Source: an uncultured Planctomycetales bacterium | GTDB taxonomy: Bacteria > Omnitrophota > Gorgyraeia > Gygaellales > JAHJCI01 | DNA: 61,555 nt | Assembly (NCBI GenBank): GCA_964592485.1 | Contig: CAZQEY010000006.1 | Span: forward strand, 1-61,555 | Direction of reading: 5' to 3' | Part shown: positions 25,896 through 45,781 of the stretch, piece by piece | How the letters are laid out: each line of letters begins with the position of its first letter | How positions within the stretch are numbered: the first letter of the stretch is position 1 | The notes under the pieces: model-generated | Databases searched by the model: none | Seen by the model: only the letters and a program-made list of their open reading frames with translations | Told to the model about the DNA's origin: nothing | Made by a program: the position numbers and the translations under genes

Positions 25896-25924
25896 TCGAT
25901 GCAGCTATAGAAAAAGCCATAAGC

Positions 25925-27221: not shown

Positions 27222-27251
27222 GTCATATAATATATAATCTATCCTATTCAA

Positions 27252-27292: not shown

Positions 27293-27345
27293 AATGTCAA
27301 TACCTAATCATTATTTTGACCTGTATTATGCAGATTGCCTCTTTC

Positions 27346-27849: not shown

Positions 27850-27868
27850 AACTTATTCCTTTCTCCAA

Positions 27869-29653
27869 TTATTCTGGATAATATTCCTTCATTTGTTTAT
27901 CTTGTAATCTTAATTGTTGCTCAATTTCATCGACTTCTTGACTGGTTTCGGTAGATTGAGCGGGTAGAGTGAAATTTTCTATTTTAAAATCTTTATGTTG
28001 TTTTCCTATTTTCACCGCATCCAGTCTTATAAGCTCAGCATCTTTTAACCATTCTTTATTAATTTTGGGCAGAGATACGTTTCTATCATTGATATATGTA
28101 AAATCAAATTGTTTAGCTTTGGTTTCAAGTCGTGTCGGGCCATATGCTGCCATCATATCTGCATATAGATTAGCTCCTATCTCTGTTAAAAATGCCTCAT
28201 TTCGTTTCTTATTTGCTATTAAATAGACATGGTTAAAATCAGAATATATATCTCGCGCAAAGTCGTATTTTGATTTCTTTTCAACTGTTCGATCAAACAA
28301 TAAATTTATTTTCTTTTCAGCAATAACAACTGTCACACCATTTGGTCTTTCCAGTATGTCATAAATTATTATTTGCTCAGAGCCAAATAAATCTCTCGTG
28401 CCTTGCTTTAAAGGCATTTGAGAACCAATCTTGTATTTATAAATATCAAATTCAGCATGAGCTGAATACGTTCCCATCTTATTTTTATAATTATTGAAAT
28501 CTAACTCTTCTATGCTAAATATTTCTACATGAGCTAAATCTTCTTTAAAAGGATTTAACAATTTAATATCTCCTAAAGCCGCCTGCAATGGAGCCATAAA
28601 TTTTTCATTAGAAAATGTTTCCTTTTTACTCGTTGAAACATATTTGGATTCGAGAATTTTTCCGTCAGGATATTTCATCTGTACTTCTTTTAATTCTCTT
28701 AAAATTGCGAACTGCTCAATAGGCAACCCCATAATTGTTTGCTTAGCACTTATCGACTTTTCCCTAGCATCTTTTTTGCTAAAACGGAACTCGTCAGATA
28801 CAACGATGTTTTCAGTATTAAATCCTACGGAGATGGATTCTACAATATCGACTGTACTTTTAACACTGCTTGCCTCTTTTAGAAAATCCCAATTCCATGT
28901 CCTTGTAAAAATAATCATAATCAGATAAGCGACAACAAACCATCTCACTGTCCTAGCGGTGTATCTTGTTAAAAACTGATGAATTACAAGAATAAAACCA
29001 ATTATAATAACGTATATATCTTTTGCCACTCCACACGATGCTTCCAAAGATGGATTCTTAAACATTTCAAAATTATAAAGAATATTTTTGGGAATCGGCA
29101 AAAACATCATAGCTATAGAACTGACAATTCCGAATACTATAAGCACTGTAAAGACAATAATCCCTACTAGCGCATATTTACTAAACTTTGGTGTTACCAC
29201 AGCTAAAATTAAGAAAGGAACAATAAAAGCTATTTTCTCTAACAATATTTCTGGAACCATAAGCAATATATGATGAGTGGTTACACCATTTGCTGCCAAC
29301 ACAATAATCTCAGCGATAAGAGGTAAGGCAACTAATAATGTCAATATTAGACATGATTTTGTTATTAGCAGGCCCTTTTTAGAAATTGGTCGGGTAAACC
29401 AAAATGATGTCGTTCCAACTAATGAATCATCTTGAATAAGCAAAGGAACAATAACAATTATCATCAAACCCTGCAGAATACTAAATAGCTTTGCAAGCAA
29501 AGGTAAAAACATTTGGAACTCTAGAAATTCGGCAGCTAAATCAATACCACCTATGCCTAAAGCTGATTGAGCAAGAATAAGCAAGAACCAAACAAAAAGT
29601 AATATTTTGATACGGAGAAAATCTTTTTTAAACAAATATGGAATAAAATACAT
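27869..29653 (-). CDS. ABC-2 type permease-like membrane protein with large C-terminal soluble domain
   Basis: 7-8 TM segments, FWFTRPISK...K motif; follows the ABC ATPase. Confidence 0.7.
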   Translation of the reverse strand: MYFIPYLFKKDFLRIKILLFVWFLLILAQSALGIGGIDLAAEFLEFQMFLPLLAKLFSILQGLMIIVIVPLLIQDDSLVGTTSFWFTRPISKKGLLITKSCLILTLLVALPLIAEIIVLAANGVTTHHILLMVPEILLEKIAFIVPFLILAVVTPKFSKYALVGIIVFTVLIVFGIVSSIAMMFLPIPKNILYNFEMFKNPSLEASCGVAKDIYVIIIGFILVIHQFLTRYTARTVRWFVVAYLIMIIFTRTWNWDFLKEASSVKSTVDIVESISVGFNTENIVVSDEFRFSKKDAREKSISAKQTIMGLPIEQFAILRELKEVQMKYPDGKILESKYVSTSKKETFSNEKFMAPLQAALGDIKLLNPFKEDLAHVEIFSIEELDFNNYKNKMGTYSAHAEFDIYKYKIGSQMPLKQGTRDLFGSEQIIIYDILERPNGVTVVIAEKKINLLFDRTVEKKSKYDFARDIYSDFNHVYLIANKKRNEAFLTEIGANLYADMMAAYGPTRLETKAKQFDFTYINDRNVSLPKINKEWLKDAELIRLDAVKIGKQHKDFKIENFTLPAQSTETSQEVDEIEQQLRLQDKQMKEYYPE

Positions 29654-29664
29654 AAGCTCGTCTC

Positions 29665-30573
29665 CTATAATTCAGAAATCTTAAATTTTTTGGCAAATAC
29701 AATAAATATCTCTTTTAAAGTCATTCCCGATACTTCTATATTGGAACAATTGGGGAAAATCTCTCGAATCTTATCCTCGCTCTTTCCTTTTATATATTGA
29801 CTATCCACAAAATGAATGGTTCTATCCTGTTGTTTTGGTAAAAACCATTCTTCACGAAACCTTGATTTAACATCAGTTGCCTCCCTTATAGTCAGTTCAA
29901 ACCGCCTGAATCTATTTTGTAATACTTCAGCCTCTTCGACAATTTTTAGCAATCCTTTGTCGATAATGCCTACCCAATCAGCTAATCTTTCAACTTCGTC
30001 AATATCGTGAGAAGATATGAATATCGTCCAATTCTCACTCTCGGTAATATCCAACACTCCTGATATAAATTCATCACGAACTAAGGGATCTAAACCACTA
30101 AAAGGTTCATCAAATATTAGTAATTTTGGTCTATACGCTAATGAAGAAACTAACGCTGCTTTCATTTTCATGCCTCGAGAAAGACTCTTCAGTTTTTGCT
30201 TTGGAGATAAACTAAACTGTTCTGTCAAATCGCTACAAAATTTATCATCCCATGTTGAATACATTTTTTTGCAATAATTCAAAAATTGATTTACTGTCAT
30301 CCACTCTGGCATTTCTTGATTCTCAGATACGTATCCAATTTGAGCGAATTCTTCTGGACCGAGTTTCTTAGAATCAACTCCCAATACAATCGATGAACCC
30401 TGAGTAGGTTTCATAATATTCATTACATTTTTGATTGTCGTTGTTTTGCCTGCTCCATTTGGGCCCAGAAAAGCAAAAATGCTACCGGCTGGAACGGTTA
30501 AATTTAAATTGTTAACAGCTATATTTTTACCAAATCTTTTCGTTAAATTTTTTGTTTCAATAGCATTATTCAT
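29665..30573 (-). CDS. ABC transporter ATP-binding protein (YtrB-like)
   Basis: GPNGAGKTT, LSRGMKMK, DEPFSGLDP, SSHDIDEVER. Confidence 0.88.
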   Translation of the reverse strand: MNNAIETKNLTKRFGKNIAVNNLNLTVPAGSIFAFLGPNGAGKTTTIKNVMNIMKPTQGSSIVLGVDSKKLGPEEFAQIGYVSENQEMPEWMTVNQFLNYCKKMYSTWDDKFCSDLTEQFSLSPKQKLKSLSRGMKMKAALVSSLAYRPKLLIFDEPFSGLDPLVRDEFISGVLDITESENWTIFISSHDIDEVERLADWVGIIDKGLLKIVEEAEVLQNRFRRFELTIREATDVKSRFREEWFLPKQQDRTIHFVDSQYIKGKSEDKIREIFPNCSNIEVSGMTLKEIFIVFAKKFKISEL

Positions 30574-30961
30574 TTTTTCCTTCCTTATTATTTAATTTCC
30601 AATGGCGATCAATCGCATCCACAACTTCCTTTTTTTTGATAGATAATCGCTTGGATTCAACAACCAATTTTTCTACCTCATTATTAAGTATCTTATCACG
30701 CTGAGCTTTAGTCGCTATACCGAATTCAGAAACAGTACTGCCAATACCTGGTTTTATTTCTAATAGCTTTTCCCTAACTAAATGAGCTACCACTTTTTGA
30801 GCAGTATTAGGGTTTATCTTTAATTCCTTACTCATTTCTCTAACTGAGGGAAATCGATCCCCCGGCTTCAACTGCTCTGTTACAATGGACTTTTTCACAG
30901 CGTACACCACCTGTTCATAGATTGGGATACCAGATTGAAATTTTATTGTAAAGTTTATCAT
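30566..30961 (-). CDS. GntR family regulator, YtrA subfamily
   Basis: PIYEQV...LKPGDRFPSVREMSKELKINPNT; short C-terminus; precedes ABC genes. Confidence 0.9.
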   Translation of the reverse strand: MINFTIKFQSGIPIYEQVVYAVKKSIVTEQLKPGDRFPSVREMSKELKINPNTAQKVVAHLVREKLLEIKPGIGSTVSEFGIATKAQRDKILNNEVEKLVVESKRLSIKKKEVVDAIDRHWKLNNKEGKNE

Positions 30962-31018
30962 ATCTAAAAACCACAGTTTGTTAAATACCTAATTAGAGAG
31001 TTACAATTTTTATTTAAC

Positions 31019-31050
31019 TGTATTATATCACATAATACACCTATTGTCAA
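31019..31050 (-). promoter_or_regulatory. Consensus promoter overlapped by a YtrA-type palindromic operator
   Basis: TTGACA(31050-31045)-17 nt-TATAAT(31027-31022); TGTATTA-N7-TAATACA at 31019-31039. Confidence 0.8.
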
Positions 31051-31171
31051 GGTTAGGGCGTTATTTTTCTAATCTCCCTACTGCTACATGCCATCCAGTT
31101 AACAAGCTGCCATAAAGGCATAGGCTCGTCCGCATTCAGTAGAAACATAATTAAATTAAGGACACATACCA

Positions 31172-31212
31172 TTCTTAAAGGGCTGGCCGAGCGCATGTGG
31201 CTAGCCCTTTTA
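31172..31212 (-). repeat. 41-nt junction hairpin, copy 3 (inverted)
   Basis: Reverse complement TAAAAGGGCTAGCCACATGCGCTCGGCCAGCCCTTTAAGAA. Confidence 0.8.
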
Positions 31213-31370
31213 TTATAGCGTAAAATTTAGTTTACTTTTCTAATTTTTGGCGCTCAAGTGCTATACGCGAGAGGCGCGGTATAGCGCAGTCCATAGAAGT
31301 TTTTAACGTGGCTTAAGGCGATATAGCGGACGACCATAGTTTTTGGGAAGCATTAGAGGACGTGCGGCTG

Positions 31371-31497
31371 GCGGCTGCCCGCACCTAGCTGCAAACCGAC
31401 GAGAATTTTTGTCCTAAAAAGAAAAAGTCCCTACTCCTAGGAGCAGAGACTTTTTCTTTGGAAGGCAAAATTTTGGGTGCGGAAAAGTTCTGCCTCT
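31371..31497 (+). repeat. Left 127-bp inverted repeat flanking the phospholipid cassette
   Basis: About 88% identical by manual alignment to the reverse complement of 36038-36163; internal hairpin AAAAAGTCCCTACT...AGCAGAGACTTTTT. Confidence 0.88.
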
Positions 31498-31498
31498 A

Positions 31499-34228
31499 CT
31501 ATCTATCTTCTTTATCTATCCTTATCTTAAGATCCCTAACTCTCCCTTCCACTTCTTTAACAATATCTTTATAGACTTCGTATCCTGTTTTTTTCCTTTG
31601 AAACTCATGAGCATATATGGGTTCGGCGAATGTTACAATAATCTTCCTAGGCCTAGGAAAAATACTTCCCTTCGGAAGAGCTGCATATGCTCCGTAAATA
31701 TAAGTAGGAATCAAGGCTACGTCAAGCTCTAAAGCCAAAGAACCAATACCTGGCTTAAATGGCATAAGTTTGCCTTCAACCGACCGCGCGCCTTCTGGGA
31801 AAAGTATAATTGACTTTTTCTTTTTGATAATCTCTGAACATATCTTTAAGCCTTTAACAAAATTCCCAAAGCGCTCAAAGGCGAACGTGTTAAAAGACAT
31901 CTCTACAAGATGGCGTTTTAAAAAACTGGTGTAAAAATAATCCTGTGCCGCCGGAGCTATAACATCCTGCGTTTCAGATAACGGCAGACAACTAAATAAA
32001 ATTGGGAAATCCAACATACTGGTATGATTACTGGCAATGATAAAAGATTTTTTACTGGGAATATTTTCTATGTCTCTCACCTCAAGCCGAAAATAAATTT
32101 TTGCAAACAGGCGAAATAAACAGGTACTAATTAACCGGATGGTCCTCACGAAAACATTCCTTTTAAGAATTGATTCTATATCTTCCTCGCTAATGGATAC
32201 ATCGTCAACTCTCCCATTTTTGTATTCGGAAATGATTCGCACAAAATCATTAAATGTGTTAATTTCATAAGCCAATTCATCCGGGATAGTTAAACCAAAT
32301 TCCTTCTCTACAAGGCATAGCAATTCTACCTTCATAAGTGAATCTACGCCAAGGTCATTATAAAGATTTGAATGTGTCCTAATGTTACTCTCGGGAATTT
32401 TAAGTAAATCAGCGAGAATATTTTTCAATTTCAAAGTAAACTCATCTTCTCTAATCTGTATCTGCTCAACAAATTGGTCCTGTTTCGCCCGTCCTGTCTC
32501 TTCGTCTTTCTTTTGTATGAACTCAAGCAGCACCTTTCGCTTTATCTTCCGTGTAGATGTTTTGGGCAAATCACCATTGTAAATCTCAAAATCTTTAATC
32601 CTTTTATAATCAGCGAGATTCTTACTAAGTCTATCTATCTCTAGAGAGATTTTTTCTTTTATTGCGGCCTCACTTTTTCTCTTGCTTTCATCAAAATATT
32701 CAAGATTGGGCACAACCACAGCATAAACCTCTTCACAGCCTTTTCTTGAACCCGTAGTTACAACTTTACCCAAAACGCAAATCTCTTTTATATAAGGGCT
32801 GTTGCTCATTACTTCTTCTAATTCCTCCGGAAAAACCTTTTTGCCCACACCTAAAACAATTAAGTTTTTCATCCGGCCCGAAATATATAAAAAGTCATCC
32901 TCATCTATCCAACCAATATCACCTGTATGGAACCAACCATTTCTAATAACCTCGCCAGTTTTTTCTGAATGCCGATAGTAGCCCTTCATAACATTCGGAC
33001 CGCGTACTATTATTTCACCTTCTTTGCCTCCAGTCTCAGAGCTCCTTAAAATTTTAACATCCAATCCCTCAAGCGGTTTTCCTACAGAGCCGTATTTTTT
33101 TCTTTTAGCCGTATTCAGGCTAATCACGGGAGAGGTTTCGGTTAATCCGTAGCCCTGAAGTACGTAAAAGCCCATTGCGTTAAAATCAATCTCTACTGAA
33201 GAATCTAAAGGGGCACCTCCACATACAAAAGTTTCTATATGGCCGCCAAATTTTTTATGCACCGGATAAAATAAAAATCTGCCAATACGAATATTAAACT
33301 TTAGTAAAAATTGCGATATGTGAAGTAATGTTTTAAAAATCTTCTGTTTTATTGGATTTTGTTTATCTAATTCCCGCATAATCTGACCATGGAACATCTT
33401 TAAAACAAGTGGCACGCATATCATATTTGTAGCTTTAATTTTTCCCATTAAAGTAAGCAGGCCAGTAGGCTTTAGACTCTTAGCATAGGTTATGCTTGCT
33501 CCTCCGTATAAGGGCCCAATAAGACCGCCGGTTATCTCAAGCATATGATTAAGCGGTAAAATAGATATAAAGCGATTTTTTCTGCTGAAAGGGGTAATCC
33601 TGTGTAATGCTATTACCTCAAACAAAAGATTACCATAGGTTAATTCAACGCCTTTAGCTACCCCCGTTGTGCCGGATGTATAAACAATAAGTGCCGTATC
33701 TTCGGCCTTAATTTCATCCGGACGATTGCGCTGATCGCCTGCTTGGCATTTCAGGTCTTTCAGATAAATAACTTCTTTGTGTCTTTCTTGAGACTCATCA
33801 AAACTTACAATATACCCTAAAGAAAGCAGCTCATTTTTTAGCTTAGTAATGATAGGTAAAAATCTCCCGGAAACAAAAATACACCTTGCACCTGAATCTC
33901 TAAGAACGAAAAGGATCTCTGCCTCAGTTAATTTAATATCCATGGGTACAGTAATACCTCCCGCTGAAATAATACCGAAGAATGTTATTACCCATTCGGG
34001 CCGATTTTCAGAAAGAATGGCTATACGGTTATCTTTTTTAATACCCATTTTGATAAGAGAAGCAGACACATCAACTGAACACTCTCTCAGCTCATCAAAG
34101 GAAAAACTACGCATGCCCTCCTCATCTTCAATTTGCAATGCAACCGCATTTTTGTGCTGTTGACTTATAGCGTAAAGCAAACCTAGCACCGTTTCATCTC
34201 TTACTGGTTCTCTACATATTTTATACAT
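31499..34228 (-). CDS. Acyl-CoA synthetase (AMP-binding)-ACP-PlsC acyltransferase fusion
   Basis: YTSGTTG, QGYGLTETSP, FHTGD (ANL); DLGVDSL (ACP Ser); NHTSMLD and FPEGARS (PlsC). Confidence 0.9.
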   Translation of the reverse strand: MYKICREPVRDETVLGLLYAISQQHKNAVALQIEDEEGMRSFSFDELRECSVDVSASLIKMGIKKDNRIAILSENRPEWVITFFGIISAGGITVPMDIKLTEAEILFVLRDSGARCIFVSGRFLPIITKLKNELLSLGYIVSFDESQERHKEVIYLKDLKCQAGDQRNRPDEIKAEDTALIVYTSGTTGVAKGVELTYGNLLFEVIALHRITPFSRKNRFISILPLNHMLEITGGLIGPLYGGASITYAKSLKPTGLLTLMGKIKATNMICVPLVLKMFHGQIMRELDKQNPIKQKIFKTLLHISQFLLKFNIRIGRFLFYPVHKKFGGHIETFVCGGAPLDSSVEIDFNAMGFYVLQGYGLTETSPVISLNTAKRKKYGSVGKPLEGLDVKILRSSETGGKEGEIIVRGPNVMKGYYRHSEKTGEVIRNGWFHTGDIGWIDEDDFLYISGRMKNLIVLGVGKKVFPEELEEVMSNSPYIKEICVLGKVVTTGSRKGCEEVYAVVVPNLEYFDESKRKSEAAIKEKISLEIDRLSKNLADYKRIKDFEIYNGDLPKTSTRKIKRKVLLEFIQKKDEETGRAKQDQFVEQIQIREDEFTLKLKNILADLLKIPESNIRTHSNLYNDLGVDSLMKVELLCLVEKEFGLTIPDELAYEINTFNDFVRIISEYKNGRVDDVSISEEDIESILKRNVFVRTIRLISTCLFRLFAKIYFRLEVRDIENIPSKKSFIIASNHTSMLDFPILFSCLPLSETQDVIAPAAQDYFYTSFLKRHLVEMSFNTFAFERFGNFVKGLKICSEIIKKKKSIILFPEGARSVEGKLMPFKPGIGSLALELDVALIPTYIYGAYAALPKGSIFPRPRKIIVTFAEPIYAHEFQRKKTGYEVYKDIVKEVEGRVRDLKIRIDKEDR

Positions 34229-35297
34229 ATATCCAGTTAATTAAGTGGAAGGTAATGGGGATGGTAAAAATGAGGCTGTCAACTCGATCTATAATTCCGC
34301 CATGCCCGGGAAGCAGGGTGCCGGAATCCTTTATCCCGATATCCCGCTTTATCATTGAGAATACCAAATCGCCCATCAAGCCTAAAATTCCTATTGCCAG
34401 GCCTAAAATAGTGCCAAAAGAATAAGTCAATCTTCCCTTTGGAAATTCGGGCATAATGGGAATAAAAGCTAACGATAAAATAGCGACAACTAAGGCGGTT
34501 AATATTCCTGCTCCCCATGTTTTCTTGGGGCTTACACTTTCTGCAATTTTAGTATTCAAAATTTTAAATATAGTATTTCTGGGAACCTTTTCGTAGCATA
34601 GCGATAAGCCCTTACCTATCCAAAACGATAAGAGATCTCGAGCCTCTGTCAAAAAGAAACAATACAGGAGCACCATTGCACCCATATTAACCATAAAAAG
34701 GCTGTGCCCAAGATTAAAAACAAAAAACATAAGCCCAATAGAAATAAGCCCCAAAGACCTTATCGTTCCTTCGGTTCTGTTTTGCAAAACGAAAATAATA
34801 GGTATGAGCAAAAAGGCATAAACCGGAGCAAGAATAATGTACAAACCATACCATTGAATATAAGCTAAATATACAGTGACCAGAATGACTAGATAACATA
34901 ATAATATAGGCAGCCTATCTTTCAAAGAAAGGTTTTTGCTTCCCCCGGTTTCTTTCTTCGGCAGAAGCGAAAAATACTCCTTCAACGCCAAAAAACAAAG
35001 AAATCCCATAAAACAGAAGGAAACAATTCTATGAGTTGAGACTGCTATCATAAAAACCGCGGCCATCCACCACCAAGTTATTGTCCTGTTAACTATTTCT
35101 TCGGCCAACTTTGATTTCCTAATTACTAATATAGCAGCAACGAAGCTAAAAAATAAAAGCAAACCAATAATAACTCCCATAATAATAAGCATAGAATAAT
35201 TCTGCTCATAAACCAAGATGCCCAAGGATGTAAATATCATTACTACAAATATAATAAATTTCCTTAAGCCTTTAAGCATCTTTACCTCCCGATCCAA
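34221..35297 (-). CDS. Phosphatidate cytidylyltransferase family (YnbB/CdsA-like)
   Basis: SPKKTW.G, GDLVFSMIKRDIGIKDSG.LLPGHGGIIDRVDS. Confidence 0.88.
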   Translation of the reverse strand: MDREVKMLKGLRKFIIFVVMIFTSLGILVYEQNYSMLIIMGVIIGLLLFFSFVAAILVIRKSKLAEEIVNRTITWWWMAAVFMIAVSTHRIVSFCFMGFLCFLALKEYFSLLPKKETGGSKNLSLKDRLPILLCYLVILVTVYLAYIQWYGLYIILAPVYAFLLIPIIFVLQNRTEGTIRSLGLISIGLMFFVFNLGHSLFMVNMGAMVLLYCFFLTEARDLLSFWIGKGLSLCYEKVPRNTIFKILNTKIAESVSPKKTWGAGILTALVVAILSLAFIPIMPEFPKGRLTYSFGTILGLAIGILGLMGDLVFSMIKRDIGIKDSGTLLPGHGGIIDRVDSLIFTIPITFHLINWIYV

Positions 35298-35920
35298 GTA
35301 TAAGATTCGTATTTTTTGCCTTTAGCTGCTTGAAGTATTTTTTTTATTCTTATGATGCAGGTCAAGCCAATTAAAACAGATACAGCTCCGAGATAATAAG
35401 GCAGGTAATGAATAAATTCCGGCTTAAAAAATGTGATAATAGCGAACAAGCCCATCCAGACTGCTCTATCAGGCTTGCCTCCACCAAAGGTCTCATGTCT
35501 ACGTGTACCTCCTGGCATACTTTTTCCAAGAACCCCGAAAAATTCTGCAGCCCAAGTCAAAATAAGATATATAGCTAATAAAAAAGTCGGGCTATTGGGT
35601 ACAAAAAAAAGTGAACCATAACAAACTGTATCCCCGACAATATCTAACGTCTCATTCCAAAGTTCGCCAGCAACGGTTGCAGTTTTATACTCACGGGAGA
35701 GCATTCCGTCTAAAGTATTCATCACCATCCGCATGAATAAAAAGAAAGGCACAAGCAGCAATGCCCACCGATAATTATTGAAAGAAAGTCCAATATAATA
35801 GCCTAATGCAGTTAGAACTACAAAAATACATCCAAAAAAAGTCGCCTGATTAGCAGTCATCCAAGAGCCACCAAACCAACGGACTACTTTCTGAAAATTC
35901 CCTTTCTGCAGATAAAGCAT
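35282..35920 (-). CDS. CDP-alcohol phosphatidyltransferase family (YnbA-like)
   Basis: NTLDGMLSRE...GELWNETLDIVGD motif; GKPDRA. Confidence 0.88.
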   Translation of the reverse strand: MLYLQKGNFQKVVRWFGGSWMTANQATFFGCIFVVLTALGYYIGLSFNNYRWALLLVPFFLFMRMVMNTLDGMLSREYKTATVAGELWNETLDIVGDTVCYGSLFFVPNSPTFLLAIYLILTWAAEFFGVLGKSMPGGTRRHETFGGGKPDRAVWMGLFAIITFFKPEFIHYLPYYLGAVSVLIGLTCIIRIKKILQAAKGKKYESYTWIGR

Positions 35921-36037
35921 TGTATCCTCCTTTTATTTTCAAATATGGATGATTTCTATTTTAAGAATCGAACAACCGTAAACACACGACTTTTTATTAT
36001 ATCACAAAAAAATAAAAAAACATTTCTTCGTTGTGCA

Positions 36038-37113: not shown

Positions 37114-37443
37114 TCCCCCGTAGCTCAGTCGGTAGAGCAGATGGCTGTCAATTCGCCAAAGGCGAATTGACCCCGAGCATCACCCTAAAAAAGTTAAGAT
37201 GCGAGGGGTTAATCATGGCAGCTTTCCCGAGAAATCGGGATTGAAAAAGCGGGCTAATTCAGGAGAGCCCTAAAAGTAAGGGTAATCCTGAGCTAAATCT
37301 TCGCTAAAGGCGGAGTAAATGTGCAGAGACTATATACCCGCTATCCAAACGTAAAAACGAGGATAAAGATATAGTCCAAGTCCGAAAGTAATTTCGGGTT
37401 ACTTGTAACCATCGTGTCCGAGGTTCGAGTCCTCGCGGGGGAG
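37114..37443 (+). tRNA. tRNA-Asn(GUU), intron-containing: exon 1 37114-37148, exon 2 37406-37443
   Basis: Joined exons give a 73-nt cloverleaf: acceptor TCCCCCG/CGGGGGA, discriminator G, D arm GCTC/GAGC, anticodon arm GATGG-CT GTT AA-CCATC, T arm CGAGG-TTCGAGT-CCTCG; CCA not encoded. Confidence 0.92.
37149..37405 (+). ncRNA. Group I self-splicing intron, 257 nt, no ORF, resembling bacterial tRNA (IC3-like) introns
   Basis: 5' exon ends in U and intron ends in G; P3 GCGGG/CCCGC, P4 TTCAGG/CCTGAG, P5 GCCCT/AGGGT, P7 GCAGAGACTA...AAGATATAGTCC, P8 TATCC/GGATA, P9 CCGAAA/TTTCGG; IGS GCAGCT at 37218-37223. Confidence 0.9.
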
Positions 37444-37450
37444 TTAATTT

Positions 37451-37478
37451 AAAAAGGCCGTCACAAGACGGGCTTTTT
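37451..37478 (+). terminator. Intrinsic terminator after the tRNA
   Basis: AAAAAGGCCGTC-ACAA-GACGGGC-TTTTT. Confidence 0.75.
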
Positions 37479-37584: not shown

Positions 37585-38757
37585 TTATTCTTTCGCTTCA
37601 GGCATTTTCCTCGGTACAGTTATATTGGTCTGCCGAAGCTTCCAACCTTCTCGCAAACACGCTTCGCATGAACTATTGAATTTACTAGTTATGAGCTCCT
37701 CTCGGAGCTTTTGGAAAGGTATCCCATTCCATATATCCAACAGCGATTCTTCTGCCAAATTACCGAGAGGCTCTTCTTGATAGTAACAACACGGTTTAAT
37801 ATCTCCACTCGCCTCTACAAAGAATGCGTAAAATGGTTCAATACAAGGCACTCTAGATGAACTAGGAAGGTAGTTCTTTTTTTTCAAAGAACTGGCCAAA
37901 TCATCCTCCATAAACTTAGTGAAACGGTGGACACCAGAACCAACCAGCATGATACCATTCCGACGAACGTTCTCCATGGTCTCAATGAATAGAGGTAAAT
38001 GAGCACGATAGTCTTCATCTGATAAATAAAACTTCTCTGGTCCGTAAAACTCGCTTGCGATGTTTTCTTCAATATCATGCAAAACCAAGCAAGCGGGCTG
38101 ATAGGGCAATATAAAGTTTGAAAAGTCGAGTAGCTCATGAATGTTTGGTTTCATCAGTACCATGCAAAAGTTCAGTTTGGGATTGCACTTATTGCATTGT
38201 GCCTTAGTCTCAACTAAGGCCTCAATATTTCGGACGATCTGGTCGTAACTCGCTCCAATACGTATGTATTCAAAGGTTTCCTTTGAAGGGCTATCCATTG
38301 AAATAGCGACTTGGGTAACATTCTGATCTATCAAGCAATTGATAATCTCCTTGGTGGCCAATGTAAAGTTAGTTGTCAGCGCAATTTCTATTTCATTTGA
38401 TGCACTTCGGATTGTACGAACTATCTCCATAAATCGGCTGTGCATGAGTGGTTCACCCCACCAACTCAAGTTAATAGATTGTGCATAGGGGAGAATCGGG
38501 ATGATTTCCTGAAAGACCTTCTCTTTTATTTCTCCAATGTAAAAACCCGAATTACATAAATAATTCCAGTAATTTGGAGTTCTACACATCCGGCAAGATA
38601 GATTGCATCTATTTGAAATTTCTACTACTATCCAAGCAGGCATATTGTCTAAGCATAATGTTGGTCTCAGAATACCTCGCAACGTCTTCAGAGCATTTGT
38701 GTACTTTGTAAACTGAGTGTGATCTGAACCCATTTGCGTGAAGGATAAATTTGGCAT
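37585..38757 (-). CDS. Radical SAM protein with SPASM/twitch domain, putative RiPP maturase
   Basis: CNLSCRMC; WWGEPLMH; CIEPF...GDIKPCC...GNL...IWNG...CEAC. Confidence 0.88.
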   Translation of the reverse strand: MPNLSFTQMGSDHTQFTKYTNALKTLRGILRPTLCLDNMPAWIVVEISNRCNLSCRMCRTPNYWNYLCNSGFYIGEIKEKVFQEIIPILPYAQSINLSWWGEPLMHSRFMEIVRTIRSASNEIEIALTTNFTLATKEIINCLIDQNVTQVAISMDSPSKETFEYIRIGASYDQIVRNIEALVETKAQCNKCNPKLNFCMVLMKPNIHELLDFSNFILPYQPACLVLHDIEENIASEFYGPEKFYLSDEDYRAHLPLFIETMENVRRNGIMLVGSGVHRFTKFMEDDLASSLKKKNYLPSSSRVPCIEPFYAFFVEASGDIKPCCYYQEEPLGNLAEESLLDIWNGIPFQKLREELITSKFNSSCEACLREGWKLRQTNITVPRKMPEAKE

Positions 38758-38901
38758 AATCCTATCCCGAGGTGAGCGAAGTAGTACTTATTCTATCGCC
38801 TTTAACCACCCCTTGTATTCTAGTCGCAATTTCAAGGAATGGGAGACACTACCCACTCACTACAACACTAACGAATGATTTTTGTCATCCCTCCACCCAG
38901 A

Positions 38902-39255
38902 CTATTTTTTAGGCGGAACTTTTTTAGTCGTAACTGCAGGAGCTGGGGCCACAGTAACCACCACTACAACCCTAACAGCTGCCCTGACAGCTGGTCTGGT
39001 CGCTGCTGTTACGCCTGCCTTTACCCGAAGGGCTTGGTATTCGCCTCCCATGGTAGTCAAGATACCTTGAAGGTCTATCCCTTCCTTGAAAAACTCCTCG
39101 GGAAGGTCGATTCCATATTCGTCAAGAATGCGTTTTGGCTCGCGTTCAAACTGCTTCTGGAACTCATCATTTTCTAATAACTTATCAATCAGTTCAAGAA
39201 CCCTTTCATCCGAGCTGTCCACTTTGATTTCAAATTTGATCTTGTTTTTTTCCAT
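38902..39255 (-). CDS. Putative RiPP precursor with NHLP-clan-like leader and Val/Ala-rich core
   Basis: Acidic leader LIDKLLENDEFQKQFEREPKRILDEYGIDLP, TMGG junction, 46-aa core EYQALRVKAGVTAATRPAVRAAVRVVVVVTVAPAPAVTTKKVPPKK; lies between two radical SAM genes; RBS AGGAG. Confidence 0.75.
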   Translation of the reverse strand: MEKNKIKFEIKVDSSDERVLELIDKLLENDEFQKQFEREPKRILDEYGIDLPEEFFKEGIDLQGILTTMGGEYQALRVKAGVTAATRPAVRAAVRVVVVVTVAPAPAVTTKKVPPKK

Positions 39256-39664
39256 GGCTTCTCCTCATATTAGGCAAAAAAGCTTATCTAACAATTAACA
39301 TATTCCTCCCAGACGGTTCACGTTTTGTCCTTTTAGTCTTTCTACACCTGACCGACATGATGATAACAATTTCACTATATTATGGGCTTCTGCACTCCAA
39401 AAGTGCACAATAATCACTCATAACTCACCTCCTTTCCAAACCGAGATGAACCATCTGTGTTTTTTAAGACCTCAGTTCAAATTTTTCTAAGTGCTAAGTT
39501 CGGCCTTAAGGAGTTATCTTGCCTACCGGCATTCAAACCCAATAATATAGGGTATGGCAACGAACTTAGGCGAGCTAATCACTTGGGTTATGCCCGAGCA
39601 TCTTCTCCGCCCCCCACTGGTGACAGCATCCTTTGAAGATTTAGAGCATTTTCCAAAATAATGT

Positions 39665-41092
39665 TCAACCTGATTTACTCGTCGTTAAGCAAGGTTTCTT
39701 ATTGTCTGCTAATTTTTCTCTATAAGGTGGAGGTATGCTGAACTCAATTAATTCCCTTTTAAAATTCAGGCACTTGAGCAACTTGATGAGGCCAACAATT
39801 TTCTCCCCGATTTTGAAGACCTCTTCACGGCTGAGAGATATCCCTTTAAAAGTGAGGTACGGATTGTGGAAAAATCCAAACTCATCATACATGCTAATAT
39901 CCACCTCGCCGCGTCTGTGCAACTCATTCCAAATCTTGGAGCCGGGTATGAGACAATGCCATTGTAGATAAAGGGTAATTCCAAAGCGGGCAGCTAACCG
40001 GCCGGCGAATTTCACCGTCTGTAGAACATCTTGATATCGTTCCCACGGCAAACCGAGGATAAAAGAGAACACTGTTCTGTCGGAATATCCGGCTTCGGCA
40101 ACTAACTGGGCAGCTCTCTCGATGGTCTTAGTCGTCAATCCCTTCCCAACTCGTTTGAGACCTTCATCGTATCCACACTCAGCCCCAAACATAACAACAT
40201 TAGTAATACGTCCCAGCACGTGTCCGAATTCAAGGGTCTGCACATCAGAGCAGCGGGCGTCCAAAGCCGCTTGAAAATACAAACCTCGGTTCTCAATGCC
40301 GTTGACGATATCAACCACCCGTTGGTTATCAATGGTGAAGCAATCATCGATAAGACTGAATGCATTTGTTATGGATTTTGAAACATACGGCTGAAGTTGC
40401 TTGACTCTCTCGATGAACCGCTCGGCCGATAACGCACGCCAGCAACGCTTAAACGGGATGGAGCAAAAAGAACAAGCAAAGGCACAGCCCCTAGCGGACT
40501 CAATCGAGATACCTTCGTAGACACCAGATGGTAATAAGTCGTAGGCGGGTGCAGGAAGGTTCTCAAGCTCACAAATTGACAAAAGCTCTGACTCTTGGTG
40601 ACGAATAAACTGGCCCCGACCATTCAGATAACTCAAGCCTGAAATTCCTGATAGACTCCTCTTACCGTCGAAATAACGAATCAACTCAGGGAGAACCTTC
40701 TCTCCTTCGCCTCGTACGACAAAGTCTATGGGATAATGGTGTAGAATATAATCATCATATAAGGTACCATGGATGCCGCCGAGAACAATAGGTATGTCGC
40801 ATTTGCTTTCACGAACAATACGAATCAACTCTCGCGCGGTAGACCAATTAAGCGAGTTTGCAGAGATACCCAAGATATCGTATTGAGAAACTGTTTGTTG
40901 AATCTCCTCTTTATAGAGTCCACCTCGGGCGATTAAATCCAGAATATCCACATCGTGCCCTGCTTGCCGCACCATTTCGGCTAGAAGATAAAGGCCATAG
41001 GGGGGGTTTGCACGTGTCTTATCCATCATAATTGGTTCAAGTGAACCATTGATCGGTTCCATGATGGGAACGGCTACTAACAAGATTTTCAT
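39665..41092 (-). CDS. Cobalamin-binding (class B) radical SAM protein, probable methyltransferase
   Basis: PPYGLYLLA, IVLGGIHGT, VVRGEGE, ESARGCAFACSFC; RBS AAGGGGG. Confidence 0.9.
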   Translation of the reverse strand: MKILLVAVPIMEPINGSLEPIMMDKTRANPPYGLYLLAEMVRQAGHDVDILDLIARGGLYKEEIQQTVSQYDILGISANSLNWSTARELIRIVRESKCDIPIVLGGIHGTLYDDYILHHYPIDFVVRGEGEKVLPELIRYFDGKRSLSGISGLSYLNGRGQFIRHQESELLSICELENLPAPAYDLLPSGVYEGISIESARGCAFACSFCSIPFKRCWRALSAERFIERVKQLQPYVSKSITNAFSLIDDCFTIDNQRVVDIVNGIENRGLYFQAALDARCSDVQTLEFGHVLGRITNVVMFGAECGYDEGLKRVGKGLTTKTIERAAQLVAEAGYSDRTVFSFILGLPWERYQDVLQTVKFAGRLAARFGITLYLQWHCLIPGSKIWNELHRRGEVDISMYDEFGFFHNPYLTFKGISLSREEVFKIGEKIVGLIKLLKCLNFKRELIEFSIPPPYREKLADNKKPCLTTSKSG

Positions 41093-41206
41093 TGAAGACC
41101 CCCCTTCTTATTCACCTACTCCTTAGGTGTCCATGACAGATACCTGGCAAAATGAGTTATAGGAATTTGCTCTTACCGAGTACCTAAAAGTTTACCTGAT
41201 TATATA

Positions 41207-41235
41207 ATTTTACTAAAGCAAGGATAGTTAGTCAA
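41207..41235 (-). promoter_or_regulatory. Sigma70-like promoter heading the RiPP cluster
   Basis: TTGACT-17 nt-TAAAAT on the minus strand. Confidence 0.6.
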
Positions 41236-41521: not shown

Positions 41522-43486
41522 TTATTCATATCTTAATGCCTCAATTGGGTCAAGCCTTGAAGCTTGTCTGGCAGGCCAAAGACCGAACCCTATTCCTACA
41601 ACGATAGAAAAGGTTGTGGCAAGTATTATAGAGAAGGAAGAAATCTTGGTTGCCCAACCAGCAAAGACTACCAAAAGCCAAGCAACGCTTGAACCAATAA
41701 CGATACCAGCTATTCCGCCGATAAAGGTCATAACTACCGACTCAATAAGAAACTGAATCATTATATCTCTCCTGCGTGCCCCCACTGCCTTACGCAGGCC
41801 TATCTCCCTTGTGCGCTCGGTTACCGAAACCAGCATAATATTCATAATCCCTATACCGCCTACCAAAAGGGATATAGCGGCAATAGAACCCAGGAGCCAG
41901 GTCATTGTCTTGGTTGTGCTCTCGAGGGTCTCCTGAATCTCGGTCATATTGCGGATTTCAAATGTATCTTCGTTATCTTTATTAATGCGGTGGCGCTTAA
42001 TAATAAGTTGGCGTATCGCGTCTTGTGCCTCTTGCATTAAATCAGTATTCCTGACTTCTACGTCAATGGAATCGACGTATTCCTTTCCTAAAAGTCGGTA
42101 CATTGCTGTAGTAATAGGAATTACCACTACATCATCGTGGTCACGCCAACCGCCTGCCCCCTTCTCCGGGAGAACGCCGATTACCTGAAAATTTATGCGG
42201 TTTATCTTAATTGTCGCGCCCACCGGATTCACATTGCCAAAGAGCTCTCCAGCTACTGTAGTGCCCAACAATACTAGCTTTTGCCTCGCCCTTAATTCCT
42301 CTTCCGTAAAAAACCTGCCAATGGTAGGCACGGATGCCCGCATTGTTGCGTAATCCACCCCTGTGCCCTGAACCTGCGTATTCCAGTTCTTATTGCCGTA
42401 AACCAGTTGGGCGCTGCCCCTGACCGAGGGCGAGACGTCTTTGACCTGAGAAAGTCCAGATATAGCATTTGCGTCCTGCAGAGTAAGGCGCGTAACTGCT
42501 CCTGCCTCTAAGGCTACTCCGTGTAGCCGATGCGAGCCTGGCCTTACCATTAGCAGGTTTGAACCCAAAGAAGCTAATCTCTCCGAAATAGATTCTCTGG
42601 CTCCCTGACCCAGGGCAAGCATAGCAATTACTGCGGCAACCCCGATAAGAATACCCAGCATAGAAAGAATTGAGCGCATCTTATGTGAAACAATAGCGCT
42701 TAAGGCTTGCCGGAAGTGGTCTATGAATTCTGCCTTTCCCACGGAAGAATGAGACTCAGATAAAATCTGGTCTATTGAATTAACCATAGAAACCGACGAG
42801 GGTTTTTCCGGTTCGGCAATGATTCTCTCGTCAGAAACAATCTCGCCGTCACGCATACCGATGATTCTTCCTGCATGTTGGGCAATCTCTTTTTCATGGG
42901 TAACCATAATAATGGTTTTACCCTTTTGGTTAAGATTCCTTAAAATCGCGATAATCTCCTCTTCGCTTTTGGTATCCAGATTCCCGGTCGGCTCATCCGC
43001 AAAGATAATCAAAGGCTCATTTACCAAGGAACGGGCAATGGCTACCCGTTGCTGCTCCCCGCCCGAAAGCTCATTCGGGCGATGAGAAGCTCTCTGGGTA
43101 AGTCCTACCTCTTTAATCTTTTCATAGGCCTTTTGTTTTAGGTGGCGCTTCCCGGCATAGATTAAAGGCAACTCTGCGTTTTCTAAGGCATTTATCCTGG
43201 AGAGCAAGTGAAACTGCTGAAACACAAATCCTGCGATGCTGTTTCTTAAAACCGCTAATTCATTATCGGTGAGTTTGGTTATTTGTATATTTCCTAATTG
43301 ATAGGAACCTGAATCAGGCCTGTCTAAAAAGCCCAATATATGAAGGAGTGTGGATTTGCCCGAACCAGAGGGACCGATAATAGCAATAAATTCACCCGGC
43401 GTAATCCTTAGGGATACATTGCGCAGCGCCTGTACCCCGATTTTGCCTGTCCTGTAAGTCTTGGTAATATTTTTTAATTCTATCAT
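41522..43486 (-). CDS. macB: MacB-type ABC exporter (ATPase-permease fusion)
   Basis: [55 protein letters not shown]. Confidence 0.92.
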
Positions 43487-43551
43487 ATTAGATAAGCACG
43501 CAGCAGATTATACCACTCTACCACACTCAGGACATAAGTTGTGCTTTAGCT

Positions 43552-44520
43552 TTACTTATTTCGCTTGCGTCTGCCAAATGGCATAAAAGGATTGGTTCCT
43601 GAATTAGTATTGTTTAAGGGAAGGTATTCCTGAGTAGTTATCAATATCTTATCGCCTGCTTCTAACCCCGAGACAATCTCTATATTTTTATCATCGGAGA
43701 TTCCCAGTCCAACGCTACGCTTAACAGATTTTTTATCTTTACCCTGACTTAATAAGACAAAGCTTCCTTCTTTCTCCTGGATAACCGCCTCAAGAGGAAC
43801 AATTAAAACATTCTCTTTGCTTTCCTCTATAATATCCACATTAGCACTCATACCCGAGCGAAAAACTCGCGGCACGCTTTTAGGAAGAATATCGACCTCA
43901 TAAATAGTGACATTATTCACAACCTCGGATTCATAAGATATGTGGTCAACCTTTGCCTCTACCTTGATTTCGGGGTATGCATCCAGGCTGATAATTGCTG
44001 CTTGAGCAAGTTTCACTTTCCCGATATCAGTCTCATCAACCTGAGCCTTAACAATAAGACGATCCGATAATACAATTACCGCGTCGGCGGAGGTAACGGT
44101 CTGTCCCGGCTCAACTGCCCTTACAATCACCTCTCCGTCAATTGGGGCAATAAGCGGAGTAGCCTTATATGCCTCCTGCCAATACTTTAAGGCTTCTTCA
44201 CCCTGCGCCCTGGCAGCATCCAAAAGCGCTGCCCTTTCTGTTGAACTCATCCAGGCTAAGGTTTGACCAATTTCAACCTTCTGGCCTTCTTTAACTAAAA
44301 TCTCTTCAATCCGCCCGCTAATCGGCGGCTTTATCTCTAAGCGGTTTTGGGGCTCGACTATGCCGGTTGTCGATATGTAGGTCTGGATACTGCCGTATAT
44401 AGGGCTTATTTCTCTAACGCTCTCAACAGAAGTCTTTCCTTGTTTCAACTTTATTATTAGAACTATAGAGATGATTACAATCAGCAAAATAAGATAAATT
44501 CTGTATTTTTTATTCTTCAT
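43552..44520 (-). CDS. macA: MacA-type periplasmic adaptor
   Basis: TM anchor, ISGRIEEILVKEG, APIDGEV, VDETDIGKV. Confidence 0.88.
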   Translation of the reverse strand: MKNKKYRIYLILLIVIISIVLIIKLKQGKTSVESVREISPIYGSIQTYISTTGIVEPQNRLEIKPPISGRIEEILVKEGQKVEIGQTLAWMSSTERAALLDAARAQGEEALKYWQEAYKATPLIAPIDGEVIVRAVEPGQTVTSADAVIVLSDRLIVKAQVDETDIGKVKLAQAAIISLDAYPEIKVEAKVDHISYESEVVNNVTIYEVDILPKSVPRVFRSGMSANVDIIEESKENVLIVPLEAVIQEKEGSFVLLSQGKDKKSVKRSVGLGISDDKNIEIVSGLEAGDKILITTQEYLPLNNTNSGTNPFMPFGRRKRNK

Positions 44521-45781
44521 CCAATGTCCCTCCCCTTGCCTTAACCCAGTTAGCTTCAGTGATTAAGGCATTGGCCTGAGCCTCCAGGAAAGATTTTTTA
44601 GCGCTGACCAAATCATCCTCGATAATTGTCCAGTCATCAAAGGAGATAAGGCCGGTGGAATATTGTGCCTGAGTAATCTTTGCTCGTTCTTCCGCCGCCT
44701 CTAAGAATTTCTGTTCGACTTGTACTTTATCTATCGCATCCTGCCATGCCTTCCAGGAATCCTCTAAGGTCAGAATGACGCTATCCCTACCGCTTCTCTC
44801 ATCAGCCTCTGCCTGCTTAAATTCAGCATTGGCTTTAGAGACTTCAGCCAGTCGGCTTCCGCCTTCAAATATGGGAAAGGATAGGCTTAGCCAAGCCGAC
44901 CACTCATTCTTGTCCGGCGGCCAGTCTGAAGCAGTTTTTCCGCTGCTGGCATTTGCATACATCTCAGGGAAGAAATCAGCCTCAGCTGATTTTAAATCGA
45001 ATCGTGCCGCTTCTCTCTTAGCAATCAATTCAAGTAAAGCGGGATTGCTTTCGGTTAAATATTCAAAATCCGGCTTATCCCGATTAGAATATTCAGACTC
45101 GAAATCCCCTCTTACTCTAACTGGCGTCGATTTCTTCCTGCCCAATTCTTTAATCAATTGCCTCTGTTTCAAATTGATATTCCTTCCCGCCTGAGTTACC
45201 TCAAATTCGGCTTTAGCCAAATTGGCTTGAGCATTTAATAGCGAACCCCTATGCTCTCTGCCTGCCTCATAACGCAATCTAACCAGCTCTACGTTCTGTC
45301 TTCGGCGCGCGGCAATATCCTTTGTAATATCAAGAAGTCGCTGCGCTTTTAAAAGCTCAACAAAGGCAGTTCTCAAACTCAATCTTATATTGGACGAGGC
45401 CACTTCATAATTGTATTGCGAAGATTTTATATCCTCTGTAGCGGAAGATACGCCGTAAGCGGTTTTAAAACCATCAAATAATAATTGTTTGCCGGTTACG
45501 CCGTAGGAATATGTATCGGTGGTAACGTTAGTAGATGCCCTTGAAGTCTTTCCGGTTAAACTACTGGATATCTGAGGCAGAGAGCCGCTCCTGGCAATCG
45601 CCTTATTGGCTTTATACTGATTTAATTGTTCTTCTGCCGATATTAAATCCGGGTGATTTTCCTTTGCCTCTCTGAGGCAATCCTTCCAAGTGAGTATCTC
45701 TTCGGCTCTTGCATCAACTAAAACTAAAGCACCACCTAAAAACAATAAAATTATAGCCATAAGCCTTACACGCATAAACAT
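44510..45781 (-). CDS. TolC family outer-membrane efflux protein
   Basis: Signal peptide, two OEP repeats (LFDGF; LSFPIFEGG). Confidence 0.88.
   Translation of the reverse strand: MFMRVRLMAIILLFLGGALVLVDARAEEILTWKDCLREAKENHPDLISAEEQLNQYKANKAIARSGSLPQISSSLTGKTSRASTNVTTDTYSYGVTGKQLLFDGFKTAYGVSSATEDIKSSQYNYEVASSNIRLSLRTAFVELLKAQRLLDITKDIAARRRQNVELVRLRYEAGREHRGSLLNAQANLAKAEFEVTQAGRNINLKQRQLIKELGRKKSTPVRVRGDFESEYSNRDKPDFEYLTESNPALLELIAKREAARFDLKSAEADFFPEMYANASSGKTASDWPPDKNEWSAWLSLSFPIFEGGSRLAEVSKANAEFKQAEADERSGRDSVILTLEDSWKAWQDAIDKVQVEQKFLEAAEERAKITQAQYSTGLISFDDWTIIEDDLVSAKKSFLEAQANALITEANWVKARGGTLDEE

Follow-up and report, generated by a model that had tools for sequence, protein, structure and literature searches.

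A predicted RiPP-like operon with two radical SAM enzymes from an uncultured Planctomycetales bacterium belongs to a widespread pairing of NHLP-clan small proteins with cobalamin-dependent radical SAM enzymes

Introduction

What do two radical S-adenosylmethionine (SAM) enzymes do to a small protein whose C-terminal part is rich in Val, Ala, Thr and Pro and free of Cys? This question is raised by a locus at positions 37585 to 41235 of the stretch of DNA analyzed here, the 61,555 nucleotides (nt) of contig CAZQEY010000006.1 (assembly GCA_964592485.1, uncultured Planctomycetales bacterium), referred to as the window. An earlier note on this locus, made from the letters alone, had described it as a minimal cluster for a peptide that is ribosomally made and modified post-translationally (RiPP) with an NHLP-like precursor. 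Our sequence comparisons point to a genuine RiPP-like operon that forms part of a widespread pairing of NHLP-clan precursors with cobalamin-dependent (B12) radical SAM enzymes and that carries, in addition, a rare second radical SAM gene. We consider it probable that this three-gene operon modifies the Val/Ala/Thr/Pro-rich C-terminal part of its 117-aa protein after translation.

Results and Discussion

The operon and its small protein

The operon consists of three open reading frames (ORFs) on the minus strand in the order B12 enzyme gene, small ORF and second radical SAM gene. The ORF list and Pfam domains confirmed this layout, its coordinates and the class B assignment of the first enzyme as the earlier note had given them. 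The features of the operon are:

41092-39665, minus strand: gene of the 475-aa class B (cobalamin-binding) radical SAM enzyme, from a large unnamed family
39255-38902, minus strand: ORF of the precursor-like small protein, 117 aa, with a GAGGAG ribosome-binding site in front
38757-37585, minus strand: gene of the radical SAM enzyme with a twitch-type (shortened SPASM) C-terminus, 390 aa
39043 to 39255, minus strand: leader of the small protein, residues 1-71
38905 to 39042, minus strand: tail or 'core', residues 72-117
38938 to 39000, minus strand: conserved core segment TRPAVRAAVRVVVVVTVAPAP

The 117-aa protein divides after the residues TMGG into an acidic stretch of 71 residues (19 Asp/Glu versus 11 Lys/Arg) and a tail of 46 residues. 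The composition of this tail (12 Val, 10 Ala, 5 Thr, 5 Pro, 5 Lys plus 4 Arg, and one each of Tyr, Glu, Gln, Leu and Gly, with no Cys, Ser, Trp, His or Phe) is exactly as previously described, as is the presence of RPAVRAAVRV and a VVVVV run. Its single Tyr precedes Gln and is not conserved. AlphaFold placed three short helices at residues 16-46, with a confidence score (pLDDT) of about 75 for residues 10-50, and predicted the tail to be disordered (pLDDT below 50); with a mean pLDDT of 50 the model was too low for a fold search. A helical leader followed by a disordered tail is, going by this model, the usual layout of NHLP/Nif11 RiPP precursors. Searches of Pfam and NCBIfam domains gave no match to YcaO, LanM, a protease or PqqD/RiPP recognition element (RRE) in any of the three operon proteins, in agreement with the earlier observation that YcaO, LanM, proteases and a stand-alone RRE are lacking.

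The leader carries the NHLP-clan motif EFQKQFEREPKRILDEYGIDLPEE. The NHLP leader model TIGR03793 scored 22.6 bits versus a cutoff of 50.9, aligning at model positions 8-42 of 77, and four NHLP-clan models matched below threshold (E 7e-5 to 3e-3). A profile of the family leader matched nitrile hydratase alpha (1v29_A, E 4e-4); its matches to an NHLP peptide (8tb1) and to the crystal structure of Os1348 (6lk7) were less strong. The Os1348 model NF038399, with a cutoff of 40 bits, gave 45.9 bits for the relative from Methylocystis, 39.9 for Kribbella, 39.3 for Bradyrhizobium and 20.3 for the window protein; relative L051 clears this cutoff. On these profiles the leader belongs to the NHLP clan at clan level only: the homology proposed in the earlier note stands; membership in the NHLP family proper is not supported.

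Two further traits taken from the window sequence were narrower than had been proposed. TMGG as the end of the leader is not supported, being replaced by TLES, EIEM, SDME and AAME in the four closest relatives; a GG is present at the equivalent position in the more distant relatives L006, P0159, P0162, L031 and L063. The cationic tail with an Arg at every fourth residue is specific to the window and not kept in relatives. What is shared lies in the segment TRPAVRAAVRVVVVVTVAPAP, which joins a family-wide (T/G)(R/K/S)P-x-V-x-V-x-V motif to a VAPxP motif of the sub-clade described below.

Conservation of the small ORF beside the B12 enzyme

A word-indexed homology search with the precursor returned no match besides the query itself, and relatives were recovered by genomic-context look-up and exhaustive HMMER searches. 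Metagenomes contained four relatives of the operon and no others, and each of the four has a homologous small ORF at the corresponding place (identities are to the window's enzymes):

L001: B12 enzyme 60% and twitch enzyme 46% identical; a 122-aa small ORF between them, with 51% identity in the leader (E 9e-32)
L002-L005: B12 enzyme 55% identical, with a second copy at 53%, and twitch enzyme 40% identical; a 98-aa small ORF
L007/L008: B12 enzyme 51% and twitch enzyme 33% identical (partial sequence); a 122-aa small ORF
L171: B12 enzyme 54% identical (C-terminal fragment), then a 104-aa small ORF (P0157); the contig ends before the twitch position

Because homologous small ORFs sit beside homologous enzyme genes, the 117-aa ORF is a genuine gene, and the reading of the locus as a precursor-plus-maturase operon holds. 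In L001, the nearest relative of the window operon, the B12 enzyme gene (347-1700, plus strand) is broken by a frameshift near 1344-1354 and was called as fragments, which is due either to a pseudogene or to an assembly error in the Logan contig. L002 and L004 have a second, paralogous B12 enzyme gene after the twitch gene (8207-9715 and 8001-9509, respectively, plus strand; 502 aa, with 53% identity to that of the window), so that a single precursor is surrounded by three radical SAM genes. Hybrid sensor kinases (Y_Y_Y plus AraC) and Bat/VWA genes in their neighborhood suggest a Bacteroidota-like host.

In a scan of species-representative genomes 80 loci were kept, the best match being 45% identical and none coming from the genome of the window itself, and a profile built from eight precursors was searched against the 4369 small ORFs of these loci at E <= 1e-3. 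The profile matched in 36 of the 80 loci, each time the immediate same-strand neighbor, up- or downstream, of the B12 enzyme gene, and nowhere else in these loci, an association well above chance. The pair was present in many phyla, the taxa including Luteitalea, Myxococcus, Kribbella, Bradyrhizobium, Rhodopseudomonas, Methylocystis, Chlorobium and Arcobacter. Family leaders follow the consensus L..L..R...D..F...(F/L)E.(D/N)P...L.E.G(I/V)..P, and the core consists of a Pro followed by alternating Val (VRVGTRPGTRPGVSVGVRVATGTS in Luteitalea and Myxococcus, GTRPVVNVVVSSAVVA in Methylocystis and KPLVRIITKGTKPAVSVITKGTQPAVQVGV in Kribbella). TRPAVRAAVRV of the window aligns with TRPGVSVGVRV of Luteitalea, the two proteins being 30% identical (E 6e-13).

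The second radical SAM enzyme is confined to the small sub-clade of the window and absent from most loci of the family. The VAPxP ending of the Val run was found only in precursors of the twitch sub-clade (VAPAP, VAPAP, VAPTP, VAPVP and VAPTP). A metagenome scan with the twitch enzyme alignment gave only distant radical SAM/SPASM proteins (22-32% identity), none of them beside a precursor of the window's family or a close B12 enzyme; since it yielded no further members, the twitch sub-clade is rare. The conserved unit, judged from these comparisons, is thus an NHLP-clan leader with a P-x-V-x-V-x-V core and a dedicated B12 enzyme, the twitch enzyme being a rare add-on. The earlier note had overlooked both the wide conservation of the pair and the accessory nature of the second enzyme.

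It could be argued that the small ORF arose by chance in a low-complexity region and that a lipid or cofactor is the substrate of both enzymes. An antisense ORF (38882-39070) also arises in the region of the precursor, phospholipid genes lie downstream at 31.5-36 kb, and the word-indexed search had matched the query alone. The leader is, on the other hand, clearly homologous to that of L001, exhaustive HMMER searches recover relatives, and every profile match in the 80 genome loci adjoins the B12 enzyme gene, while a convergent tRNA gene and a terminator part the operon from the lipid genes. Conservation of the small ORF excludes these readings, whose remaining probability is negligible.

Several further observations concern neighbors of the pair in other genomes. 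In 16 loci (for example L006 7589-8284, L015 5961-6644, L028 6007-6765 and L051 5919-6647, with minus-strand copies in L011 at 2555-3304 and L063 at 2496-3200) the pair is accompanied by a polytopic membrane protein, about 235 aa long, that has no Pfam or NCBIfam family and is absent from the window. It shares the motifs GAGAG..E, ER...GH..SRG and DG.AAYG and may be a protease, exporter or immunity protein. A shared cluster of 638-aa neighbors was rejected as an unrelated AMP-binding enzyme. In a metagenome-assembled genome of Luteitalea sp. (L006/L010, 1553-5004, plus strand) an APH-type kinase gene and a HopA1/LanC-like fusion gene just upstream of the pair resemble the kinase/lyase/cyclase set of a lanthipeptide synthetase. 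Distant members of the B12 enzyme family (30-37% identity) are found near other small ORFs (L073 1389-1538 in Blautia caecimuris, L055 778-978 and L067 2150-2371, all plus strand); one of these has an Ile/Val-rich tail (GIVIVIVVGVAVTGV), and the other two have Cys-rich tails (GCGCGCILGC and SGCISPCM) with a 450-aa radical SAM/SPASM enzyme alongside. This hints at a wider set of B12 radical SAM peptide systems.

The B12 radical SAM enzyme

The 475-aa protein contains a B12-binding domain (PF02310, E 1.7e-18, residues 30-137) and a Radical_SAM domain (PF04055, E 2.5e-11), and its CX3CX2C motif at C203/C207/C210 is invariant in 14 homologues; by these domains it is a class B (cobalamin-dependent) radical SAM enzyme. 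Its family comprises at least 383 proteins at E < 1e-10, at about 40% identity and from many phyla, for which the names in databases are generic or wrong ('B12-binding radical SAM protein', 'Mg-protoporphyrin cyclase'). Among NCBIfam models the top match was ApyD, with 138.5 bits versus a cutoff of 750 (E 2.6e-40, residues 28-390), followed by BchE. In a profile search of the PDB, OxsB ranked first (3e-27) and QCMT (9ccb) second (3e-19). ApyD is a peptide Tyr C-beta-methyltransferase (10.1101/2023.10.30.564719) and QCMT a protein Gln C-methyltransferase (PMC12931638).

The twitch radical SAM enzyme

The second enzyme matched Radical_SAM (E 8e-15) and SPASM (PF13186, E 3.9e-13) in Pfam, with its radical SAM motif CX3CX2C at C51/C55/C58. 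Full SPASM domains hold two auxiliary clusters with seven Cys and twitch domains one cluster with a four-Cys subset. Five conserved Cys (C305, C323, C324, C364 and C367, in the pattern C-X17-CC...C-X2-C) indicate that the enzyme is of the twitch type with one auxiliary cluster; of the earlier description as SPASM/twitch, the SPASM-family C-terminus was borne out and a full seven-Cys SPASM domain was not. Its best sequence matches among solved structures were BtrN (7e-14), itself a twitch enzyme with the one-cluster arrangement, anSME (6e-7) and CteB (8e-6). The AlphaFold model (pLDDT 81) resembled the folds of SuiB, DesII, SkfB, CteB and anSME with TM scores of 0.5-0.6; of these, SuiB, SkfB and CteB are RiPP maturases. 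The PoyD epimerase model TIGR04517 (cutoff 325 bits), present in the NCBIfam library searched, was not among the best 25 matches of the twitch enzyme (all E <= 6.9e-8), and on this basis the enzyme is not a PoyD-family epimerase.

The substrate limits the reactions to be considered. Its core holds no conserved Cys, Trp or other aromatic residue. Thioether and Lys-Trp chemistry are excluded because the substrate has neither Cys nor Trp nor a Lys-Trp pair, and a core without Cys and Trp whose lone Tyr precedes Gln fits none of the sactipeptide/ranthipeptide, streptide and spliceotide classes, as the earlier note had concluded for thioether peptides and spliceases. Conversion of Val to cyclopropylglycine by a cyclopropyl synthase of the TvgB/TigE type was also considered, TvgB/TigE being radical SAM-SPASM enzymes that act on Val/Ile in repeats (PMC10878394) and the window's substrate being rich in Val. 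This candidate was rejected, since the TvgB/TigE family requires a strictly conserved GYW motif, whose Tyr ligates auxiliary cluster I (PMC10878394), and no GYW occurs in the 390 aa. TigE, whose crystal structure is available (PMC10878394), was not found among the sequence or fold matches either, and the predicted twitch domain has one cluster instead of the three-cluster SPASM arrangement, which leaves a cyclopropyl synthase very improbable. Epimerization, dehydrogenation and an aliphatic or ether cross-link near VAPxP remain as candidate reactions.

Comparison with known systems

The nearest functional analogue in the literature is MpcB of the mpc cluster of Streptomyces clavuligerus (MpcA, the B12 radical SAM enzyme MpcB and the DUF5825 protein MpcC), where MpcB with its DUF5825 partner beta-methylates P, V, I and T of the clavusporin KPSVGITITVPFR (PMC10849626). 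In both systems basic residues flank the hydrophobic Val/Ile/Thr/Pro core of a ribosomal peptide, and a class B radical SAM gene adjoins that of the precursor. They share the pattern K/R-P-x-V-x-(V/I)-x-(V/I), as is evident from a comparison of KPSVGITITVPFR with RPAVRAAVRVVVVV and RPAVGVAVAVVVAP, and the basic residue and Pro that precede the hydrophobic core are also present in TRPAVRAAVRVVVVVTVAPAP of the window. On the clavusporin side, some Mpc precursors contain runs of seven Val/Ile and modification depends on the leader, which add to the likeness. In contrast, MpcB has a CX7CX2C motif, exceeds 600 aa and requires DUF5825, while the window enzyme has CX3CX2C and 475 aa, with no DUF5825 match in the operon. 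Mpc clusters are furthermore confined to actinomycetes, encode an S9 peptidase as well as an MFS transporter, have a leader of 17 residues that is not an NHLP-type domain and lack a second radical SAM enzyme.

Proteusins (polytheonamides, aeronamides and landornamide) combine an NHLP precursor with a PoyD/OspD radical SAM epimerase and PoyB/C B12 radical SAM C-methyltransferases. The earlier note had likened the window system to them, and a true proteusin of the polytheonamide/landornamide type, with a PoyD/OspD-like epimerase that introduces alternating D-residues and a PoyB/C-like C-methyltransferase, together producing a beta-helical, pore-forming, membrane-active peptide, would be consistent with the NHLP-clan leader, the aliphatic core, the class B and second radical SAM enzymes and the cationic tail of the window. 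Membership is not supported by any of the three models, all of which score far under their cutoffs: the PoyB/C-type model TIGR03975 matched the B12 enzyme only partially (47.8 bits versus a cutoff of 281.85), any TIGR04517 match of the twitch enzyme lies at E > 7e-8, and TIGR03793 fits the leader over the first half of its domain only. In addition, the cationic tail and Arg periodicity are not kept in relatives, most family members lack the second radical SAM enzyme, and no N-methyltransferase, hydroxylase or C39-type protease/transporter is part of the window system. We regard a proteusin as quite unlikely.

Three further known systems were compared with that of the window. The Os1348 family (NF038399; Pseudomonas sp. 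Os17, PMC7726476; 6lk7) has a similarly short helical leader, and relatives of the window protein reach or graze its cutoff while the window protein itself stays far below; its cluster consists of a GNAT, a HEXXH protein and a SagB-type dehydrogenase without radical SAM enzymes. ApyD, of the aminopyruvatide system, is the best-scoring curated family for the B12 enzyme and likewise acts on a ribosomal peptide, but it has 645 aa with a C-terminal RRE, which is missing from the window enzyme, and its substrate motif GYLYD is unrelated. BtrN, anSME, CteB, SuiB and SkfB share with the twitch enzyme a radical SAM core and, after it, C-X17-(G-X4)-C ... C-X2-C; they are 13-19% identical to it, and it has no N-terminal RRE.

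Genomic surroundings of the operon

Housekeeping genes mark the window as part of a bacterial chromosome. The operon is flanked by the following features:

41207 to 41235, minus strand: promoter-like TTGACT-17 nt-TAAAAT, matching at 10/12 positions, within the 430 nt that separate the MacB stop from the start of the B12 enzyme gene
37458 to 37471, strand not assigned: GC-rich hairpin with a T-run after it on either strand
45781-44510, minus strand: TolC-like outer-membrane factor, part of an efflux set (41522 to 45781) directly upstream of the operon
44520-43552, minus strand: HlyD-type adaptor of the same set
43486-41522, minus strand: MacB-type ABC transporter of the same set

The TTGACT-17-TAAAAT site is a plausible promoter of the operon, as had been suggested; the site is present, while such sites are not enriched in the window (11 observed versus 10.7 expected from shuffled sequence). 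The hairpin is likely to be a bidirectional terminator serving both the operon and the convergent tRNA gene. The efflux set, which the earlier note had not mentioned, encodes a MacAB-TolC-type pump that is a possible exporter of the product and a putative member of the cluster. In the 410-nt gap between the genes of the B12 enzyme and the precursor, and in the 5' region, no RNA was found in Rfam at gathering cutoff or at E <= 1. This gap shows neither similarity nor a conserved mini-ORF in comparison with the 780-nt gap of L001. It contains a mini-ORF of 13 codons, MSDYCALLECRSP (39380-39421, minus strand), with a strong ribosome-binding site (AAAGGAGGTGA), which is not kept in L001 and for which the gaps of L002 and L007 are too short; it is probably fortuitous. 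The RNA fold 3' of the precursor gene is slightly more stable than shuffles (z = -2.1).

Two observations concern the region downstream of the operon. The convergent gene, encoding tRNA-Asn(GUU) (37114-37443, plus strand), is split into exons 37114-37148 and 37406-37443 by a 257-nt group I intron (37149-37405) after anticodon position 36. ARAGORN misses this tRNA in the genomic sequence and calls tRNA-Asn once it is spliced, and the intron scores 93 bits with RF00028 of Rfam. The bacterial tRNAs usually cited as carrying group I introns are tRNA-Leu, tRNA-fMet, tRNA-Arg and tRNA-Ile, and tRNA-Asn may be an unusual host. Further downstream, the G+C content falls to 32-38% at about 18000-36000, versus 41-45% elsewhere in the window, in a stretch that encodes a 909-aa acyl-AMP ligase/ACP/acyltransferase fusion (34228-31499), a CDP-alcohol phosphatidyltransferase, a cytidylyltransferase and a HemN/HutW-like radical SAM enzyme (24624-25895) and may be an acquired lipid-related island.

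Proposed function

Our best guess, by analogy with the clavusporins and ApyD, is iterative C-methylation of aliphatic residues combined with a second radical step. The B12 enzyme would dock on the leader and methylate unactivated side-chain carbons via methylcobalamin, the likeliest positions being C-beta of Val, Thr or Pro, and its action would probably be iterative, on one face of an extended strand, in the manner of MpcB on clavusporins or ApyD on Tyr. The twitch enzyme might then take hydrogen from the same segment and introduce a second modification needing neither Cys nor an aromatic partner, for which the candidates are epimerization at C-alpha, two-electron oxidation as carried out by BtrN/anSME and formation of an aliphatic cross-link. 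The product would be very hydrophobic, protease-resistant and surface- or membrane-active, as well as cationic in the window organism, and may exit via the adjacent MacAB-TolC-type pump. We infer methylation because ApyD is the top family match, QCMT is the second relative in the PDB and the core pattern of the clavusporins is alike.

Several points weigh against this proposal. The B12 enzyme scores far under the cutoff of every named family, and the fold matches of the twitch enzyme are generic and do not separate an epimerase from a dehydrogenase or a cross-linking enzyme. The MacB/HlyD/TolC set is not found beside relatives L002, L004 and L007, and clustering of conserved neighbors revealed no MacB cluster common to the window and the 80 genome loci and no protease, RRE or dedicated transporter common to the precursor/B12 enzyme pairs. 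The closest solved relative and the second-best family match of the B12 enzyme are not methyltransferases: OxsB contracts a ring and BchE cyclizes. PbsB, a B12 radical SAM enzyme from a RiPP system, forms a C-C cross-link instead of methylating (PMC12257519). Since enzymes of this kind can cross-link too, our preference for a methyltransferase is only a modest one, somewhat better than even.

The last two points, together with the lack of a curated name for the family, would suit a B12 enzyme that catalyzes a C-C cross-link, a cyclization or a rearrangement of the Val-rich segment, with the twitch enzyme as partner in this new chemistry. Of the characterized class B enzymes with peptide or protein substrates, on the other hand, most (ApyD, MpcB, QCMT and PoyB/C) are C-methyltransferases; the core offers no conserved aromatic or otherwise activated residue for cross-linking, and its pattern is like that of the methylated clavusporin core. 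We consider such a reaction unlikely.

A different possibility concerns the fate of the modified protein. Instead of a released peptide, the product might be an uncleaved cytoplasmic or cell-associated small protein whose Val-rich strand is permanently modified and which has a structural, assembly or nucleic-acid/membrane-binding role; QCMT and Mmp10, which modify MCR, provide the model for such a case. Relatives of the small protein have long C-terminal extensions, coiled-coil-like in L009, L021 and L024 and Lys/Arg-rich in L006, L011, L028 and L065. In L170 a 333-aa protein (491-1492, plus strand) unites the same type of leader, long Val-rich P-x-V repeats and a C-terminal HHH_3 (helix-hairpin-helix) domain, and its gene lies directly upstream of that of a B12 enzyme 50% identical to the window's, which implies that the modified segment can belong to a larger protein. 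This fusion and the missing protease or transporter suit an uncleaved modified protein equally well as a released peptide, and the protein-modifying QCMT is among the nearest solved relatives. In contrast, a structured leader with a disordered tail is the layout of NHLP/Nif11 RiPP precursors, the leader is followed by GG in the window and the five distant relatives named above, an efflux pump adjoins the window operon, and clavusporin precursors bear followers that are removed later, too (PMC10849626). An uncleaved protein thus appears somewhat unlikely but has to be reckoned with.

Returning to methylation followed by a second radical step, the proposal can be extended from the window to the family, and we do so tentatively. 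The pairing may represent an undescribed, multi-phylum class in which a class B radical SAM enzyme reads an NHLP-clan leader and modifies a P-x-V-x-V-x-V strand, with the twitch enzyme of one sub-clade adding a chemically new aliphatic modification by VAPxP, and in which the product would have a physiological role (surface activity or self-assembly) and not that of a classical antibiotic. No paper on the family was found among open-access papers and bioRxiv preprints; prior work elsewhere is possible.

Significance

Radical SAM enzymes that functionalize unactivated aliphatic carbons of peptides are rare and wanted as biocatalysts. The pairing of small protein and B12 enzyme is widespread in bacteria and apparently unstudied. 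Of the 80 genome loci kept, at least 36 have it, among them those of cultivable Myxococcus, Kribbella, Rhodopseudomonas, Bradyrhizobium, Methylocystis, Chlorobium and Arcobacter, and because of this wide spread and the generic or wrong names in use, one reconstitution, if successful, would annotate hundreds of genes. New chemistry would be likeliest in the sub-clade of the window, where a second radical enzyme meets a substrate without Cys or an aromatic partner. If the products resemble clavusporins, peptide biosurfactants or morphogens would extend past the actinomycetes.

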